A stretch of DNA of 63,428 bases, the filler included, from Planctomycetota bacterium (lineage in GTDB: Bacteria > Planctomycetota > Planctomycetia > JALXBF01): the NCBI GenBank assembly GCA_026991575.1. It is 3 parts of 3 records of this genome, joined end to end, with 100 filler letters (N's around TTAATTAATTAA, not from the genome) between each part and the next. Parts side by side here need not be neighbours in the genome. Positions count along the whole stretch, not along the records: positions 33,184 to 63,428 come from JALXBF010000009.1; 2 more parts are not named here. The stretch is one strand, 5' to 3'. The position numbers and the translations under genes were made by a program. The notes beneath the pieces are model-generated. The model did no database searches and had not been told where the DNA came from. It saw nothing but the letters and a program-made list of their open reading frames with translations. Below are positions 3,739 to 54,658 of the stretch, one piece after another; the stretch's first letter is position 1; every line of letters starts with the position of its first letter.

Positions 3739-5694
<1,956 letters not shown>

Positions 5695-5712
5695 CAGCCG
5701 GAGGGCCGACCG

Positions 5713-6318
5713 ATGGCGGACATCGTCCTCAGCCGCCAGCGGAGCGCGCTGCTGGTAATCGATTTCCAGGAGAAGCTCGCTGCACACATCCAGGCGCGCG
5801 AACGGACCGAGGCGAACATCGCGCGGCTTGTGCGTGCGGCCAGGTTGCTAGGGATCCCTGTCATTGTGACCGAGCAGTATCCACGCGGGCTGGGCCCCAC
5901 CACAGCGGGGCTCCGCCCGCTTCTGCCCGCACCATACGAGAAGCTCGCGTTCGGTTGCTGCAAAGAAGCCAGCGTCGCCGAGGCCCTGGCCGAAGTCGAC
6001 CGTGACCAGTGGGTGCTGGCCGGAATCGAAACGCACGTGTGCGTGCTACAGACGGCCGCCCAACTGGTCCAGCAGAGGAGCGTCTCCGGCGTTTTTGTCG
6101 TCGCCGACGCATGCTCGGCACGCCGGCAGTACGATCACGACGTCGCGCTGGCCCGGTTGCGGCAAGCAGGCATTCAGGTGGTCACGACAGAATCGGTGCT
6201 CTTTGAGTGGTTGGAGCGGGCAGGAACCGAAGAATTCAAACGGATCGCGGCTCTGGTCAAAGCAACCGACTCGGAAGTGCTGGCAGATACCCTGGGGCCC
6301 AGTTCGGCCTCTTCTTAA
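5713..6318 (+). CDS. isochorismatase-like cysteine hydrolase
   Basis: LLVIDFQEKL, TEQYPRGLG and GIETHVCVLQT motifs. Confidence 0.9.
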   Translation: MADIVLSRQRSALLVIDFQEKLAAHIQARERTEANIARLVRAARLLGIPVIVTEQYPRGLGPTTAGLRPLLPAPYEKLAFGCCKEASVAEALAEVDRDQWVLAGIETHVCVLQTAAQLVQQRSVSGVFVVADACSARRQYDHDVALARLRQAGIQVVTTESVLFEWLERAGTEEFKRIAALVKATDSEVLADTLGPSSASS

Positions 6319-7585: not shown

Positions 7586-7601
7586 TGGCACGGCGATTGC
7601 A
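7586..7601 (+). promoter_or_regulatory. sigma54 (-24/-12) promoter of glnA
   Basis: TGGCAC-GGCGA-TTGCA is an exact TGGCAC-N5-TTGCA match, in the expected context. Confidence 0.85.
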
Positions 7602-43636: not shown

Positions 43637-43867
43637 TCACTGTTGCCTTGTGCCGTTGTTGAAAGCGTTGATTGCACCGAGTTCGTGTGCAAGCAGCCTT
43701 ACTGTTTCGCGTAGTTCATGAACAGCCTCAGTGTGCGCGCGCATGCACGACTCGACACGTTCCACAAGCGCTGCCCATTGCTTCGACACGTACCAGGCAA
43801 ACCAGATGCACATTGCTGCTGGGAATCCAACAGAACCGACCAATTGACCAATGGTCAGGGGGTCCAT
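43637..43867 (-). CDS. putative holin (YvrJ/BhlA-like)
   Basis: One TM segment (VGFPAAMCIWFAWY) followed by a coiled coil. Confidence 0.6.
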   Translation of the reverse strand: MDPLTIGQLVGSVGFPAAMCIWFAWYVSKQWAALVERVESCMRAHTEAVHELRETVRLLAHELGAINAFNNGTRQQ

Positions 43868-44292
43868 TCCTTTGCTAGCCCCTTTTCGAGCAGCATCTTT
43901 CCAACGTCATTGCCGTTCAGAAACACACGCGCTAAGACTCGCCCAAACGAATCTCTGCCGTGGACTTCAAGCGTGACCCGCTGCCATTGGACATGTTGCT
44001 CCGCCCATCGACGTGCTGCCTCAGCTAGCTGCTGCTGTAGCTCGTCATGTGACGAGAGCTCCGGAGTATCGACACCGTAGAGGCGGATGTGCTCTTCGCG
44101 AAGTGATACCCCAAGGGGTAAATCAACCTGGCCAACGTAGGTGTCCCCGTCGATGACTCGAGTGATTACTGCTGTGACGCACTGCCCTGTCTCCTGCGGA
44201 TCCTCGCGAATTGCTGCCAGCTCCACCGCGCACACCACCACAGCTGCCGTCAGCCATGCTGCGCAGTGATGCGCGAGGAGCTTACTTGCCAT
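43855..44292 (-). CDS. thermonuclease (SNase family) with an N-terminal hydrophobic segment
   Basis: VIDGDT, IRLYGVDTPE, DSFGRVLA, LLEKGLA. Confidence 0.92.
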   Translation of the reverse strand: MASKLLAHHCAAWLTAAVVVCAVELAAIREDPQETGQCVTAVITRVIDGDTYVGQVDLPLGVSLREEHIRLYGVDTPELSSHDELQQQLAEAARRWAEQHVQWQRVTLEVHGRDSFGRVLARVFLNGNDVGKMLLEKGLAKEWTP

Positions 44293-44794
44293 GGTCAGTT
44301 ACCTCGTACCTCACCTGTCCTTTCTCGTCGACCCACCACCGGACGCGCAGTTTAAGCGGCTGGCTTTCGACTTTCACCGCGCCGCTATTATGCGGGTGCG
44401 CAGCTTCTGTTACAGGCTCCGTAGGCGTGGTATTTTTACTCCACGCCAACACTCCAGCCGCGACTGCAGCAGCCGCCGCAAGCAACGCCACCAACCATGG
44501 CAGCACAGGTGGCGGTTGGATGTTTGCGCGCGTGTAATGGTCGGCGACGACGAGGTCGCCCATCTCACTGACTGCTCGCTGCGTCACCGGCTGCCCGTCG
44601 AACAGCACCCTGTCGTACCACGCTGCCTGGCGTGCGTTTTCCATCGCCTGCATCTCTGCCCATCCCTGGACCGTCAGTGCCTGCTGCAGCGTGTCCAGGC
44701 GGTTGCGCTGCTTGAGCACCTGCTCCGCTGCTTCCTGCTTTGGCGTCTGGAGGGGGTGGCCCAAGTACTTCCTGATAGCGCGCCACAAGCTCAT
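44282..44794 (-). CDS. single-pass membrane protein
   Basis: Coiled coil followed by a TM segment (WLVALLAAAAAVAAGVLAW). Confidence 0.7.
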   Translation of the reverse strand: MSLWRAIRKYLGHPLQTPKQEAAEQVLKQRNRLDTLQQALTVQGWAEMQAMENARQAAWYDRVLFDGQPVTQRAVSEMGDLVVADHYTRANIQPPPVLPWLVALLAAAAAVAAGVLAWSKNTTPTEPVTEAAHPHNSGAVKVESQPLKLRVRWWVDEKGQVRYEVTDHGK

Positions 44795-47785: not shown

Positions 47786-48768
47786 GTCGACCTCCCATTC
47801 GCGTCGCAGGTGCGCAGCTCTCCGTTCCCGCCCCCCTTGGACACCCAGCGCGCAAGCATCTCGCGCAGTTCGTCCATCTCGCTCTTTGCCTTCGGGGGAG
47901 GCTTCCGAACCAGGTGTATGTGCTTGGCCACGCACTCCGGCGTGACGACGATCTCCCAGCCCAGCCGCTCCAGCAGCTCTGGAAACTGACGCACCTCGGT
48001 GGCCGTGTATGGCGGGTTGGCAGCAAGCAATTCGCTGGCCACTCGGTGGTAGCGCTTCCAGGACCTGGCAGAGTCGTCCAGGGGCGCGACGTCACGCAGC
48101 GCCTTGACGAGCTCGCTGCGCTGCCGGATCGCCTCCGGGGATTCTGGGGGCTCGCTGCGCGGTTTCTGGGTGGGAGAGTTTTTTGCAGGCGCGCGAGGCG
48201 CCTCGCCGCGAAGCGGCGACGCGGCGCAAGCCGCGTCCGAGCGTCCTGCATCCTGCATCCTGCAGGATGCAGGAAGCGCACGTAGTGCGCTTTCTCTTCT
48301 CCTCTCCTCTCCTCTCCTCTCCTCTAGGGCGTTACGGTAACGTTTCGGTAACGTTACGGTAACGTTACGGTAACGCGGATGTAACGTTACATCAGCGTTA
48401 CACGCCTGTTCCGTAACTCCTTTGCGTGCCTTTGCCTTACGCTCTCTGTGTCGACGAACTCGCTCCCGATTTCGAGAATTTTGCCCCATGTGGCGCGCAA
48501 AGTTCGGAATCCGAATAAATCGCTTTTTGATCGAAATCCATCCAACTTTTTCCACCGCGCGCCAGAACTCAGGCGGCGTTTTGAACAGGGCGCAGAGGGT
48601 GTCCAAGTCAACCCCGCGCAGCGTCCCGTCGTCTGTCTGCGAATCGCACCAGCACCAGAACCTGACTAGCGTGCCTAGCACGTGGTCTGGGTGCAGACCC
48701 GTTGCAGCGGCGATTTTCACGATCTCTGGCTTACTTGGTGTTGTTGTATCCACCTTGATCCAGGGCAT
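47782..48768 (-). CDS. phage replication initiator (lambda O-like organisation)
   Basis: MPWIKV...KPE..., wHTH-like N-domain, RERVRRHRE helix, internal iteron array. Confidence 0.8.
   Translation of the reverse strand: MPWIKVDTTTPSKPEIVKIAAATGLHPDHVLGTLVRFWCWCDSQTDDGTLRGVDLDTLCALFKTPPEFWRAVEKVGWISIKKRFIRIPNFARHMGQNSRNRERVRRHRERKAKARKGVTEQACNADVTLHPRYRNVTVTLPKRYRNALEERRGEERRRESALRALPASCRMQDAGRSDAACAASPLRGEAPRAPAKNSPTQKPRSEPPESPEAIRQRSELVKALRDVAPLDDSARSWKRYHRVASELLAANPPYTATEVRQFPELLERLGWEIVVTPECVAKHIHLVRKPPPKAKSEMDELREMLARWVSKGGGNGELRTCDANGRST
48244..48406. repeat. iteron-like 11-bp tandem array with a CCTCT run and TCCTGCA repeats (probable origin)
   Basis: CGTTACGGTAA at 48330, 48352 and 48363, CGTTTCGGTAA at 48341, degenerate copies to about 48406. 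Confidence 0.8.
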
Positions 48769-48955
48769 GGCGTCCTCCCCTTTCTCTGCGGTACAGTTCC
48801 AGTGACTGTGGGTCTACCAACCATCCGAGCCGCGTGCGACAGCCGCGTAGGCGGCCAGCCTCGAGCAGGGCTCGGACCCACTGCACACTGCACTCTAGCT
48901 CTCGTGCGGTCTGGCCAGCGGTAAGCCAGCACTCCAGCTCGCGCAATTCGACCAT
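48731..48955 (-). CDS. excisionase-like HTH protein
   Basis: WLTAGQTARELECSVQWVRALLEAGRL...GWLV. GGAGG RBS. Confidence 0.8.
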   Translation of the reverse strand: MVELRELECWLTAGQTARELECSVQWVRALLEAGRLRGCRTRLGWLVDPQSLELYRRERGGRHALDQGGYNNTK

Positions 48956-49020
48956 GGCACGACCTCCGACAGTTGCTGCTCCACTCAGCCGGCACCCGCC
49001 CGCCGGGTGCCGGGCGACCC

Positions 49021-49050
49021 ATTGTACCGCGCGTCCAGGCGGCGCCGCAA
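49021..49050 (-). promoter_or_regulatory. sigma70-type promoter of the replication/late leftward operon
   Basis: TTGCGG-N18-TACAAT on the minus strand. Confidence 0.55.
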
Positions 49051-49057
49051 CAGGTGG

Positions 49058-49086
49058 TTGACACGCCGGGTGCCGTGCGGTAGAAT
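49058..49086 (+). promoter_or_regulatory. near-consensus sigma70 promoter
   Basis: TTGACA-N17-TAGAAT. Confidence 0.85.
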
Positions 49087-49191
49087 CGCGGCGCCATCTG
49101 CCCAGCGGCTTGGTACTCCGGGTGTCCGGGGGGCCACTAGCAGGGGGGGCACGATGTGCCCCCCTTTGGCCTCTATTTGCGGGGGAGCACC

Positions 49192-49440
49192 ATGCGCAAC
49201 GCGCACTCAGATGCTGTTGCCGCAGCGGCCACAACCCGTCAGCAGCCGGTTGAGCGATTGCTCAGCGTGACGGAGGTTGCCGTAGTACTCGGGATTAGTG
49301 AGCTAATGGTGCGCCACTACATCCGAGACGGAGAGCTACCCGTCGTACGTGTCTCCGAACGCTGTCTTCGTGTGCGCCCTGACGACCTCCGGGACTTCAT
49401 CGATCGCAGGGTAGACCGGCAGGGCAAGGACAGCGACTAG
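49192..49440 (+). CDS. excisionase-like HTH protein
   Basis: LLSVTEVAVVLGISELMVRHYIRDGELP...RVRPDDLRDFI. Confidence 0.85.
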   Translation: MRNAHSDAVAAAATTRQQPVERLLSVTEVAVVLGISELMVRHYIRDGELPVVRVSERCLRVRPDDLRDFIDRRVDRQGKDSD

Positions 49441-51165: not shown

Positions 51166-51591
51166 CTAGAGTGATCGCCCCTCTGGTATATTGCCTGACT
51201 TAAGCTGATCAATGGCCCGTCGGATGTGCTCAGGCGCTTCCGACTCCAGCCTGCGTCTTAGGTTACCGGCTGGTCGGTAGCGCCAAGCATAGTAGCAGCG
51301 GTATAAGGTGCACAGAACGATTTCCTCGTCCTTCACCAGCGCGTACCAGTCCCATCCTAGTCCTTCGCGCCAGGAAGGATCTTCAACCAGGTCCTGCTCC
51401 CAACCTAGCAGCCAGATTTGCACGCCGTGGCGAGGCTCGATCCACGTCCAGATTAGGCCGGAGCCGCCGGTCGGAGCGTGAGGTACCTCTACCGGATGAG
51501 AAAGGTAATCTGCGAGGTCGTCTGGCACGCGCGGTAGTTCCCAATCGGCTATCCTGATGCACTGCTGCGGGTATAAGGCGGTGTTACTCAC
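51166..51591 (-). CDS. Trp-rich hypothetical protein
   Basis: Last gene of a tightly coupled operon, GGAG RBS. Confidence 0.65.
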   Translation of the reverse strand: MSNTALYPQQCIRIADWELPRVPDDLADYLSHPVEVPHAPTGGSGLIWTWIEPRHGVQIWLLGWEQDLVEDPSWREGLGWDWYALVKDEEIVLCTLYRCYYAWRYRPAGNLRRRLESEAPEHIRRAIDQLKSGNIPEGRSL

Positions 51592-51964
51592 GGCTTACAT
51601 CTCCGAGTCGCACGTCGTCACTGTACTCAACTACGACACGCTCGATCCGCCGAAACCTTTCGAACCGGTAAATCCGTCCGTGCTGGATGACGTGGGCGCC
51701 GTCTTCCTTATACTCGTCGACCAGCTCCATCTGTGCCCACAGGGGGCGCAGCCCACGCTGACACAGCACGGCGATAACACTGAGGGGGGCAACTACGACT
51801 AGGTCGTCGCAGCCGGATCGCCGAAAGCGTTCGACCAGGTCATCTGCAGACGCGAACGGACGCGGGTCGTGGATAATCTCGACCGGTTCGCCGGCCAGCT
51901 TTTCGAGTGCCGCTTCCTGCGCCGGCAGGTGTGGGTGACGCGACATCCAGTAGACTCTTATCAT
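51584..51964 (-). CDS. hypothetical protein, Csx15/Csx16/Csx20-like (candidate ring nuclease)
   Basis: GGAGG RBS. Pattern SRH...AQ...L..L.G, D..VVVAP...LCQRG.RPLWA and F.RFRR, recognised by eye only. Confidence 0.5.
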   Translation of the reverse strand: MIRVYWMSRHPHLPAQEAALEKLAGEPVEIIHDPRPFASADDLVERFRRSGCDDLVVVAPLSVIAVLCQRGLRPLWAQMELVDEYKEDGAHVIQHGRIYRFERFRRIERVVVEYSDDVRLGDVSRE

Positions 51965-52197
51965 GGGCGCACCTCCTCCGCAAGTGGTGGAAACCAGTGC
52001 CATCCTTCGGGCCACACCTGGAACTGGTGGCCGTCCGGCGTTTCATAACACGTCAGGTCTCTAGCTGCTTTCCATCGCACCGTGCCGCGGGGGAGTTGCA
52101 ACACAAGCTCCCCGCCCCTAATACTGGCTGGAAAGACGCTTAGCAAAGCGTCCACCTGGAGTATGTGTGAGTCGAGCAGTGGCAACCTCAGAGTCAT
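51961..52197 (-). CDS. hypothetical protein
   Basis: AGGAG RBS, ATGA overlaps on both sides. Confidence 0.65.
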   Translation of the reverse strand: MTLRLPLLDSHILQVDALLSVFPASIRGGELVLQLPRGTVRWKAARDLTCYETPDGHQFQVWPEGWHWFPPLAEEVRP

Positions 52198-53249
52198 GCC
52201 AGCTCCTCCTGCAATCTGATCAGGAACTGCCTGAATTCGTCGCAGCTTAGTACAACGTTGCAAAGTTTGATCGCATCGCCAACGCGGCCCTCTGCAGCAA
52301 GATCAACTGCGTGGCGGACCGTGTCCTCGGTAATGTCCGGCCGGAATTGCTGTGCTACGGATGTGACCACGTGGTACTGATGGTTATCTCTGATGTTCTG
52401 TGCCAGGCACATTAGCACGGACACAAGGTCGCTATCCCTTGAGATAACAGCCAACATGCGCCGAACTAACATCGCTGTCTCCTTCCAGCGTTGGTCGGCC
52501 AACTTCTCGAGCGCATCGGCTATCGCGTCCTCGTCACCGTCTGATATCGGGCCGATCAGGGAGGTGTTAATCCAGCTGTCTGCGCAGATGAGTGCCCTCT
52601 GCTCCGCAGGTGCTCTAGCTACGACCTGGGCCACGTCGCGCGGCGTGCGGACGGCGCAGCGGCATAGCGCGCCCCATGGGTCGGGCCATATCGGCCGGCC
52701 ACACTGCAGGCAAAAGTCGACTGGCATCGGCTCGACAACCCAGCATGTGGACCAGCGCACGAGCCGGTGCGCTGATACGCCCAGGGCGTCGGCGACCGCA
52801 TCGACGAAAGGCTCTGGGTCTAATACGGGGAGCTGGGCCATGCAGACGTCGTCTCGCGAAAACTCCACCGTGTCCAGCTGGCAGTGCTGCCGTGTACGCA
52901 CGGTGGCCCCGGCTACCAGCACCTCGTACGCAGTGGACTGTGGTAGATCAGTGCCAGCCGGCAGGAACACCACCGATACTGGCGTGTAGTACCACGAGCG
53001 GCCGGCCGGAAAGGAGATCAGCGGCAGACATGGCGGGGGGGCCTGGAGACGCAGCTGGTGCCACGTCCTCTCGACCCTAGATGCGTATTCTGAGGCACCC
53101 CTGGAAGTGCTGAGAACATGAATCCAGGGAGCCTCGACGGGGGGGATAAAAAGCAGCTCAGGGTTAGGACTCGACTGCAAGAACCGGTAGGCGCGGCGGA
53201 ATGCCGCTAGGTGCACGTCTGTGTAAGTGTGTGTGTGCAGCTTGCTCAT
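52194..53249 (-). CDS. hypothetical protein with a zinc ribbon (CLQC...CRC)
   Basis: 351 aa, GAGGAG RBS, ATGA overlap with the HTH gene. Confidence 0.7.
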   Translation of the reverse strand: MSKLHTHTYTDVHLAAFRRAYRFLQSSPNPELLFIPPVEAPWIHVLSTSRGASEYASRVERTWHQLRLQAPPPCLPLISFPAGRSWYYTPVSVVFLPAGTDLPQSTAYEVLVAGATVRTRQHCQLDTVEFSRDDVCMAQLPVLDPEPFVDAVADALGVSAHRLVRWSTCWVVEPMPVDFCLQCGRPIWPDPWGALCRCAVRTPRDVAQVVARAPAEQRALICADSWINTSLIGPISDGDEDAIADALEKLADQRWKETAMLVRRMLAVISRDSDLVSVLMCLAQNIRDNHQYHVVTSVAQQFRPDITEDTVRHAVDLAAEGRVGDAIKLCNVVLSCDEFRQFLIRLQEELA

Positions 53250-53470
53250 GGCTCCTCCTCTGCTGCATTGTGTTCTCGTTCTACGTGTCTAACGCTTTCC
53301 CCGCCCAGGTTCTGACGGAGCAACCTGAGCAGGGCCTGTGTCGCGGCGTTCGGCGTGGCGCGGCCGTGCAGCCAGCGCCACAGCGTGGTTCGGTGCACCC
53401 CGATGATTTTGGCCAGTTGGCCCCCACCGTGGGAGGCCACTAGCCGTCTCAGGTCGTCTCGCCAGCTCAT
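53246..53470 (-). CDS. XRE/Cro-like HTH regulator
   Basis: QLAKIIGVHRTTLWRWLHG..TP. GGAGGTG RBS. Confidence 0.85.
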   Translation of the reverse strand: MSWRDDLRRLVASHGGGQLAKIIGVHRTTLWRWLHGRATPNAATQALLRLLRQNLGGESVRHVEREHNAAEEEP

Positions 53471-53503
53471 CGTTCACCTCCGGTCCTACGGTTGGTTGCG
53501 GGC

Positions 53504-53519
53504 TGCAACATCCGTGCCA
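53504..53519 (-). promoter_or_regulatory. sigma54 promoter, leftward
   Basis: Minus strand reads TGGCAC-GGATG-TTGCA, an exact consensus match. Confidence 0.8.
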
Positions 53520-53603
53520 AAGTGGAAATACGGCTGCATCGCTGCCGCCAATAGTACAGACAGCGGTACGCTTCTCTTTGCGTTGGCGCGTGCGATACCG
53601 CAC

Positions 53604-53645
53604 AGTGTTGCAGAATGCAACAACAGTGTTGCATTCTGCAACACT
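53604..53645. promoter_or_regulatory. tandem palindromic binding sites (enhancer or operator)
   Basis: TGTTGCA-gaa-TGCAACA acag TGTTGCA-ttc-TGCAACA. The whole element is a perfect 19-bp inverted repeat with a 4-nt spacer. Confidence 0.85.
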
Positions 53646-53718
53646 CTGTCGTGATCCACGAAGCCGGGCGCTTTTCATAAGTCGCGCCGCGGACACATGT
53701 TGCGGATTTTGGTGTTTG

Positions 53719-53734
53719 TGGCACGCGGTTTGCA
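53719..53734 (+). promoter_or_regulatory. sigma54 promoter, rightward
   Basis: TGGCAC-GCGGT-TTGCA, an exact consensus match. Confidence 0.8.
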
Positions 53735-53828
53735 ATAGCATATGGGCGACGCGAAGCGATGCAGTGCCCAGGCGGACCAAGGCCAGCCGCCGAGGCCGAA
53801 GTGGGTGGCCCAGTGAGGAGGACGAGCG

Positions 53829-54386
53829 ATGCGCGAGTACGCTGTTTTCCGCCACGACGAGCTGCACGGTACCCGCTGGTACGGGTACTACGAGGCCGCG
53901 ACCCCGGAGGAGGCCGTCCGTAAGGCCCTGGCCGACGGAGACGGCCTGCCGGAGCACCTCTGGGACACCGCCTGGGCCGCCGGCCACGTGGCCGGCTACT
54001 CCGAGCCCGACCAGGAGCTGCTGGAGCGCTGCTGGACCGACGATCCAGGTGCGCACTGGGTACTCGTGGACGGTACCAGTTACGTGGCGCTGGAGACTAG
54101 GGTCACGGTCCTACTGGACGCCCGCCGAGACCTCTACGAGGCGGGCAAGTGCACGTGCGACGAGTGTGTAGCTGCCTTCGCGCGTGCTTACGAGGCGGCG
54201 GCTCGCCGTCTCGAGGAAGAGCGCGGGCTCGAGATTCGGGTGGTCCATGGACGTTACGACGGACTACCCCCAACCGGCTACCAGCCCAGCGAATTTGAGC
54301 GCTGGGTCTGGCAGGAGCTGCACTACGCTGTAGATGACGTCGAGTGCCCTGGTTGCGACGACCCGGACTGTCCAGACGCAGTTTAG
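53829..54386 (+). CDS. acidic hypothetical protein with Cys clusters
   Basis: GAGGAGG RBS, CTCDEC and CPGCDDPDC clusters. Confidence 0.75.
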   Translation: MREYAVFRHDELHGTRWYGYYEAATPEEAVRKALADGDGLPEHLWDTAWAAGHVAGYSEPDQELLERCWTDDPGAHWVLVDGTSYVALETRVTVLLDARRDLYEAGKCTCDECVAAFARAYEAAARRLEEERGLEIRVVHGRYDGLPPTGYQPSEFERWVWQELHYAVDDVECPGCDDPDCPDAV

Positions 54387-54397
54387 GGGGGAGTCTG

Positions 54398-54658
54398 ATG
54401 CGCCGATGTCCAATTGCAGAGTACTACCTCGATTACGCCACCGACGAGTACTTGGCCGGCAGGCGCCCTGAGACGCCAGCCACGTGGCTGGATGGTGTCA
54501 GGGCCAAGAGGTGGACGTTCAGATACAGGTTCACCATGCGACGATGGCTAGCCGATGCGCTAGCCGAGGGGGTAATAGTGCCCGTCGAATCGAAAGGTGG
54601 TCGCACTGCGTACGTGTGGGCGTCCGCAGTGGACAGAAAGGACGAGGAAGACTCATAG
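54398..54658 (+). CDS. hypothetical protein
   Basis: GGGAG RBS, followed by a terminator. Confidence 0.65.
   Translation: MRRCPIAEYYLDYATDEYLAGRRPETPATWLDGVRAKRWTFRYRFTMRRWLADALAEGVIVPVESKGGRTAYVWASAVDRKDEEDS

Follow-up and report, generated by a model that had tools for sequence, protein, structure and literature searches.

A divergent phage region with two sigma-54-type promoters and an enhancer-like dyad pair matching those of small-RNA genes in the associated planctomycete

Promoters of the sigma-54 type stay closed until a signal-activated ATPase opens them. In the NtrC-glnAp2 system, the enhancer consists of tandem dyads at about -110 and -140 with the NtrC motif TGCACC-N5-GGTGCA, and low-affinity "governor" sites are also present. 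For the activator LuxO, an excerpt of PMC3352281 gives the consensus TTGCA-N3-TGCAA, and the LuxO sites located by chromatin immunoprecipitation sequencing at qrr1-4 of Vibrio cholerae are equal to this consensus in the table consulted (PMC10328515, Table 1). The current study deals with a 63,428-nucleotide stretch of DNA from the planctomycete assembly GCA_026991575.1, hereafter the window, and within it with the switch region between two divergent gene blocks of a phage genome. Its sequence supports the presence of two putative sigma-54-type promoters around a common enhancer-like dyad pair.

Among phages, the Pseudomonas phage YuA is the closest described case. Its development is reported to be strictly dependent on host sigma-54 in a passage of PMC5053324, which cites Ceyssens 2008 and calls sigma-54 use by phages rare, with YuA as an example, and a sigma-54-like YuA promoter, P015, is reported from ONT-cappable-seq in an excerpt of PMC10914365. 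A sequence-only reading of the window, according to which no well-characterized phage circuit with this layout was known, was too strong in view of the sigma-54-dependent development reported for YuA. A third publication (PMC7693777) was considered as a precedent and rejected, as it describes a phage protein weakly like sigma-54 and not a promoter.

Two outward promoters and their dyads

The window comprises three contigs of a 191-contig assembly with a size of 4.96 Mb, which are joined via N spacers, i.e., C7 (1-2719), C8 (2820-33083), and C9 (33184-63428). The two 127-bp ends of C9 are identical, and the contig is therefore regarded as a circular phage assembly, namely, the complete genome of a siphovirus-like phage with 30,245 bp including the terminal overlap and a GC content of 0.597 versus 0.642 for the whole assembly. 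The switch region is located on C9, whereas the glnA gene, whose promoter had been cited as a host promoter within the window, is located on C8; the phage is thus not a prophage beside glnA. The glnA promoter box with the same consensus was indeed recovered at position 7586, but its designation as a host promoter in this window rests on binning.

The leftward promoter P_L (TGGCACGGATGTTGCA; 53504..53519, minus strand) and the rightward promoter P_R (TGGCACGCGGTTTGCA; 53719..53734, plus strand) are perfect, outward-facing -24/-12 boxes, just as they had been recognized from the sequence alone. All 12 core positions of TGGCACG-N4-TTGCA are matched by both of them, with GG and GC doublets 10 nt apart, and the preceding T of the extended consensus YTGGCACG-N4-TTGCW is also present at P_L. 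The predicted transcription starts lie at about 53493 for P_L, as judged from the GC of its -12 element, and at about 53745 for P_R. Both boxes also face genes with strong ribosome binding sites (RBSs), as had been claimed: the distance from the P_L box to the ATG at 53470 (minus strand) is 33 nt, with the RBS GGAGGTG at 53481-53475, and that from the P_R box to the ATG at 53829 is 94 nt, with the RBS GAGGAGG at 53815-53821.

Such boxes are rare. The window contains three copies of the pattern TGGCAC-N5-TTGCW (P_L, P_R, and the glnA box), compared with 0.07 in shuffled sequences, none of which (0 of 100) reached a count of three. The complete assembly contains 24 boxes, two of them on C9 within 216 bp. 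By our own arithmetic, the 22 boxes outside the phage correspond to an expectation of about 0.13 per 30 kb, and the chance of two divergent boxes falling within 216 bp of each other is much smaller again.

Two further elements were observed next to P_R. A terminator-like hairpin with a T-rich tail is located at 53687-53705 (plus strand), just 5' of the -24 box; with one occurrence versus 0.6 expected, it is possibly due to chance. An open reading frame (ORF) of 24 codons extends from the predicted P_R start (53742-53816, plus strand) within the 84-nt leader.

A simple consensus scan of positions 53200-54000 detected no sigma-70-like promoter, a result that is weak for a phylum whose promoter consensus is poorly known. 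Alternatively, sigma-54 might not use the two boxes at all: they could be bound by a factor of the phage or be left over from a repeat family comparable to the palindromic box arrays of other viral contigs, with the genes being transcribed from unrecognized planctomycete promoters. This explanation has to be seen together with the distribution of the boxes in other viral contigs. Divergent perfect box pairs with a distance of 185-215 bp were found at four further viral loci, three of them independent, compared with about 0.01 expected by our own estimate, which shows that divergent pairs recur in viruses. In addition, box arrays were observed in L101:1210-1730 (10 boxes), L102:1430-1750 (6 boxes; L103 is nearly identical), and L104:690-1860 (6 boxes). 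L101 and L102/L103 carry many 34-bp palindromes of the type TGGCAC-N5-TTGCA-N2-TGCAA-N5-GTGCCA, i.e., convergent boxes, about every 50 bp, and L104 contains three tandem boxes. Candidate functions of the arrays are promoter clusters, a sigma-54 sink, or binding sites of another protein. Since convergent pairs cannot all be ordinary promoters, box-like sequences of phages may sometimes serve another purpose, and the arrays speak to that extent for a sigma-54-independent role of P_L and P_R as well. But the region studied here contains only two boxes, which are divergent and positioned 33-94 nt before start codons with strong RBSs; the associated genome encodes RpoN; and P_R shares 21 of 25 bases, flanks included, with the promoter of a host small RNA (sRNA) gene on contig C103, the transcript length of which agrees with initiation 12 nt past the GC. 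No homology between P_R and the C103 locus was found beyond these elements, so that only the functional elements are alike. We regard the sigma-54-independent explanation as quite improbable.

Almost midway between the promoters lie two perfect dyads, whose presence and spacing of 21 bp had been described previously with a deviation of just 1 bp in position. Dyad 1 (TGTTGCA-GAA-TGCAACA, TGTTGCAGAATGCAACA; 53606..53622) is centered 95 bp from the T of the P_L TGGCAC and 105 bp from that of P_R, and for the center of dyad 2 (TGTTGCA-TTC-TGCAACA, TGTTGCATTCTGCAACA; 53627..53643), the corresponding distances are 116 bp (P_L) and 84 bp (P_R). The two are separated by 4 bp, and their centers precede the -24 box of P_R by 84/105 bp and that of P_L by 95/116 bp, which corresponds to whole helical turns. 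Dyads 1 and 2 thus have the properties of an enhancer for a bacterial enhancer-binding protein (bEBP), i.e., tandem dyads about 80-150 bp upstream on one face of the DNA. The earlier inventory was correct for this perfect pair, but it missed a third, weaker dyad (GGTTGCGGGCTGCAACA; 53494..53510) that agrees at 12 of 14 positions, spans about -17 to -1 of P_L, and overlaps its -12 box. With no more than two mismatches, TGTTGCA-N3-TGCAACA is present three times in the window versus 0.15 expected; for the 14 scored positions, the background probability per position is 2.5e-6 for up to two and 2.25e-4 for up to four mismatches. The arrangement is not a product of chance.

Owing to their complementary spacers, GAA and TTC, dyads 1 and 2 combine into a larger inverted repeat (53601-53648; arms of 22 nt), which folds as single-stranded DNA into a 19-bp hairpin with -23.7 kcal/mol and a z score of -7.15. 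A search of the switch region against Rfam yielded only subthreshold look-alikes of microRNA hairpins, which are caused by the palindrome. The tandem dyad was absent from the viral contigs searched and detected once each in genome contigs (L002) and metagenome contigs (L100). In L002:2960-3120, two copies of TGTTGCA-N3-TGCAACA are located in a repeat-rich noncoding region before a retron-like reverse transcriptase gene (YIDD motif), with flanks that are unrelated to the phage, and in L100:340-470, the tandem dyad belongs to an iteron-like array beside a replication-like gene on a low-GC contig. The stable hairpin and these two occurrences would fit a structural function of the 42-bp perfect inverted repeat, such as a replication origin, iterons, a cruciform, or a recombination site, with its placement between the promoters being incidental. 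However, only two copies and one degenerate copy are present, the replication initiator gene of the phage (47782-48768) is 5 kb away, and the matching enhancers of the host described below would be left unexplained. A purely structural element is hence the least probable of all explanations considered here.

Host small-RNA genes with the same enhancer layout

The associated planctomycete genome encodes one RpoN (on C36; E value, 1.9e-61) and 16 full bEBPs, and 26 matches to the Sigma54_activat domain (PF00158) were counted genome-wide in six frames. None of the 26 is located on the phage contig, which is also devoid of a GAFTGA motif, in agreement with the prior statement that no GAFTGA-containing phage protein is present. 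If the promoters work, their activator must therefore come from the host. Perfect boxes precede glnA, dnaK, grpE, an hsp20 gene, and others in the host, which indicates that the consensus is in use in the associated genome. Boxes 70-111 nt before dnaK, grpE-like, and hsp20-like genes (C105:94833, C119:3827, and C183:61527; all minus strand) suggest that heat shock genes of this planctomycete may be sigma-54 dependent.

A scan of the host genome for the dyad upstream of sigma-54 promoters, as had been proposed, revealed weaker copies with two to four mismatches at three sRNA genes. Eight host sites were found at a level of two mismatches, one of which, TATCGCATTTTGCAACA on C103, is located about 100 bp upstream of a perfect sigma-54 box, a coincidence with a chance of about 0.007 by our own arithmetic. 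The C103 locus and its paralogues on C113 and C138 each consist of a perfect box, a conserved noncoding transcript of about 75-110 nt (predicted), a terminator hairpin, and a T-run. Before every one of these boxes, the phage motif recurs as a pair of dyads with 2-4 mismatches in 14 positions and a spacing of exactly 21 bp, with centers at -106/-85 (C103), -128/-107 (C113), and -140/-119 (C138) before the T of TGGCAC, compared with 105/84 for P_R and 116/95 for P_L. Genome-wide, two dyads with up to four mismatches and a distance of 21 bp exist at five places only, i.e., the phage, the three sRNA genes, and one site on C78. The retention of the host dyads despite diverged flanks argues for a function. 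The previous proposal of a host bEBP as the activator is strengthened by the common dyad, the 21-bp spacing, and the similar distances at three host sRNA genes, together with the presence of rpoN and 16 bEBPs, and may be regarded as the most plausible option at the sequence level.

The sRNA copies of the associated genome are located at L068:3001-3112 (plus strand), L069:2094-2201 (minus strand), and L070:2993-3140 (plus strand). Five more copies are present in the sister genus G001 (L088, L096, L097, and two in L099), where the tandem layout with 21 bp is kept, but the half-site is CGATACA instead of TGCAACA. The phage consequently matches the variant of the genome with which it was binned, and this correspondence supports both the host assignment and a single cognate DNA-binding protein.

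Common to the sRNAs are a conserved 5' segment, GCGGAACCCAGCGACAGCGACCCC, and a terminator stem of 13 bp in which six pairs show compensatory changes. Their C-rich loop, CCCCCUC, has the potential to base pair with Shine-Dalgarno sequences. A match to the family was not found in Rfam at an E value of ≤1, and the core pattern had no exact match in genomes of other species; the copies apparently represent an undescribed family of sigma-54-dependent small RNAs. The genes beside one of the host loci carry DUF1559 and BBP7 domains, which we take to be typical of planctomycetes. A comparable situation was observed on C12 at about 5400-5830 (minus strand), where a perfect sigma-54 box is followed by a noncoding stretch of about 190 nt with a C-rich run, a strong terminator hairpin, and a T-run; TGCAAC-GCT-GTTGCA is located about 190 bp upstream of this box. 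The stretch may encode a further sigma-54-dependent RNA under the control of the same or a related activator.

Flanking genes and the phage contig

The first leftward gene (53246..53470, minus strand) encodes a 74-amino-acid (aa) protein of the Cro/C1 (XRE) type with a helix-turn-helix (HTH), whose RBS is the above-mentioned GGAGGTG (53475-53481). The assignment is based on weak Pfam matches to HTH_31 and HTH_3 below the cutoff, on a single-sequence AlphaFold2 model with five helices (predicted local distance difference test score, 73.8), and on its best Foldseek matches, i.e., HigA in complex with operator DNA, P22 c2, 434 Cro, and the restriction-modification controller protein C.EcoT38IS, with E values of 0.4-2 and template modeling scores of 0.5-0.6. 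Cro/XRE-type HTH families were also found in 9 of 12 distant relatives scanned. No relative was detected in the host genome (best tblastn E value, 0.29). The alternative that the protein is a stand-alone Fis-type DNA-binding domain of a bEBP was discarded, as the BLASTP E value of 0.02 came from a tiny set of 16 bEBPs, and the fold and relatives indicate XRE/Cro.

This neighborhood provides the most serious competitor for the dyads, one that the sequence-only reading had left out of account. They could be operators of the phage's own Cro-like protein, with two dimers on the perfect pair and one over P_L, resulting in autorepression, possibly via a loop; the sigma-54 promoters, if used, would then receive their activation from a host bEBP that binds elsewhere or operates from solution. 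In a mixed form, the Cro-like protein would compete with the bEBP and shut both promoters after an early burst. XRE family proteins typically bind palindromes of 14-18 bp, and 17-bp dyads 4 bp apart represent a typical operator geometry. The gene adjoins the dyads, its product resembles the XRE/Cro fold (with weak scores), Cro/XRE HTH families occur in 9 of the 12 distant relatives, perfect dyad copies are confined to the phage, and the third dyad lies over -17 to -1 of the gene's own promoter, like a classic autorepression site. However, operators of a Cro-like protein leave the host dyad pairs with the same spacing and distance unexplained, given that the host lacks a relative of the 74-aa protein. 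The perfect dyads are placed 84-116 bp upstream, which is the position of an enhancer and not of an operator, and the consensus scan placed no sigma-70-like promoter across them. The Cro-like protein as the only binder would moreover be insufficient, because a sigma-54 promoter still requires an ATPase activator. We therefore consider operator sites of the phage protein unlikely, with a higher standing than either of the other two alternatives.

The remainder of the leftward block (51166..53249, minus strand) comprises a 351-aa ORFan (52194-53249), a 143-aa ORF (51584-52015), and a 141-aa ORF (51166-51591). The rightward block (53829..54658, plus strand) contains only two small genes, encoding a cysteine-rich 185-aa protein (53829-54386) and a 104-aa protein (54344-54658) with a weak, subthreshold match to the Exc family. 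Neither an HTH nor a peptidase family was detected in the 185-aa protein, and a protein atlas provided no lead for the 185-aa and 351-aa proteins (scores of 0.77-0.78).

Nearly all phage genes are located on the minus strand, with P_L at the head of that direction, and this strand carries the replication, packaging, head, and tail genes. Structural and packaging functions of C9 include an HK97-type capsid, a protease, a portal, TerL, a tape measure, and tail and connector proteins, and apart from the replication initiator, a methylase and an HNH nuclease are encoded. Neither a tyrosine integrase nor a CI-like repressor with a peptidase domain was found on the phage. The original designation of the controlled genes as accessory does not hold, since P_L heads the strand with the replication, packaging, head, and tail genes and the first gene encodes a Cro-like XRE regulator; the genes behind both promoters represent an early or regulatory region that is not clearly accessory. 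A second divergent junction of the phage was observed between HTH_17-type genes at 49156-49440 (plus strand) and 48731-49234 (minus strand), the ORF calls of which overlap by 78 nt, so that one of them is probably wrong. No sigma-54 box is present at this junction (48731-49440).

The phage is only distantly related to those described. Its TerL has at most 47.7% identity to any GenBank phage, and no DNA match to the switch region was found among GenBank phages. The pattern TGGCAY-N5-TTGCW was absent from all 63 loci L005-L067 (40 viral loci obtained via a 259-aa protein and 23 genome loci obtained via an HTH protein), which are too distant to serve as a conservation test. The sole DNA similarity between C9 and the remaining contigs, with 65% identity across 709 bp, connects positions 43648-44344 of the window (C9:10465-11161) with C2:26811-27504. 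The similar stretch surrounds an SNase-like nuclease gene, and C2 also encodes a tyrosine integrase. C2 may represent a related prophage remnant.

Proposed mechanism and comparison with known systems

The reading that we favor with moderate confidence is that a host NtrC-type activator drives both phage promoters via an idealized copy of the host sRNA enhancer, with the third dyad damping P_L. The 360-bp region between the divergent early blocks would accordingly harbor two outward sigma-54 promoters that both depend on one two-dyad enhancer. A host bEBP of the NtrC family, activated by its own signal, would bind both dyads and form an oligomer, which could reach either of the closed promoter complexes through a DNA loop and open it. 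Early phage transcription would thereby be coupled in both directions to the host signal that induces the sRNAs, and the weaker third dyad, which spans the -12/+1 region of P_L, would probably damp this promoter when the dyad-binding protein is abundant.

Several observations, in part already cited in favor of the rival explanations, weigh against this mechanism. With at most one mismatch, TGTTGCA-N3-TGCAACA occurs nowhere in the assembly except in the phage pair, and the three host loci on C103, C113, and C138 are paralogous and hence represent about one independent case in statistical terms. No bEBP gene is located beside the sRNA genes in the associated genome or in G001, and none of the 16 host bEBPs reached an NCBIfam equivalog cutoff. 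A comparison of the DNA-binding helices in 13 bEBP pairs of the associated genome and G001 revealed a changed recognition helix in L083/L116, L079/L112, L077/L114, and L075/L106, which singles out none of them. Regarding the phage-host link, no CRISPR spacer or other DNA connection was found, and the assignment is based on binning and the enhancer match. Relatives of the switch were not detected either: the 351-aa and 74-aa proteins yielded only self-matches among 5.8 billion proteins, the 351-aa and 185-aa proteins had no relatives in the viral contigs, and the only other genome of the same family contained no match to the switch. Finally, no RNA runs with the stretch were listed, the only entry being one DNA run (X1) that is possibly its source.

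A more far-reaching possibility, which is doubtful at present, is that the phage eavesdrops on host signaling by enhancer mimicry, its dyads being a stronger version of the enhancer that belongs to a multicopy, Qrr-like family of sigma-54-dependent sRNAs. The level of the activated bEBP would then determine whether and in which direction the switch fires, with both promoters being active at low levels and only the rightward promoter at high levels, when the P_L dyad is filled, and the perfect dyads might titrate the activator away from the host sRNA genes. If this is true, the phage would base a lysis-or-wait decision directly on a two-component signal of the host and would need neither a receptor nor an activator of its own. 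A phage with both early blocks behind sigma-54 promoters and no activator gene would in any case leave it to host signaling when infection begins or which of two programs is chosen. The match to the host sRNA enhancers offers a testable candidate regulon and a way to find the responsible activator, and, as a regulatory connection that does not rely on alignment, it ties an uncultured phage to a planctomycete that is likewise uncultured. It also draws attention to the undescribed, putatively sigma-54-dependent sRNAs of the host with their C-rich loop, which is potentially directed against Shine-Dalgarno sequences.

The individual parts of this arrangement are textbook elements, but a host-matched phage enhancer that is common to two early promoters was not found in the published literature searched, and no case that links a phage enhancer with a named regulon of the host was found in the same literature. 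Within the phage dyads, the inner 13 bp agree with the LuxO consensus at 10 of 10 specified bases, and the host sites match it partly. The associated host resembles the LuxO/Qrr system in having several paralogous sRNA genes with sigma-54 promoters and tandem upstream sites for an NtrC-type activator. In contrast to that system, the host is a planctomycete and the phage enhancer would serve two divergent protein-coding operons. No host protein reached the equivalog cutoff for LuxO (best score, 381 versus 800 bits). In the absence of a LuxO orthologue and a Qrr-family RNA, the host sRNA arrangement may work like LuxO-Qrr without being a member of this system.

With YuA, the phage would share the use of host sigma-54 for phage transcription. 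The excerpts on YuA, however, mention neither an enhancer or activator nor a divergent layout, and the two phages are unrelated. The lambda CI/Cro region is similar in having a divergent regulatory region that leads into the early genes, a first gene of the Cro type (weak scores in the present case), and three 17-bp dyads of graded quality. It differs in that the promoters of the phage are of the -24/-12 and not the -35/-10 type, that the best two dyads are located about 100 bp upstream rather than on the promoters, and that no CI-like repressor gene opposite cro and no integrase were found on the phage. The NtrC-glnAp2 system is matched by the two same-face dyads about 100-140 bp upstream of the predicted start and by a weak promoter-near site that could limit the output. 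Unlike glnAp2, however, the phage has another motif, its enhancer is common to two outward promoters, and its weak site is placed directly over the -12 element.

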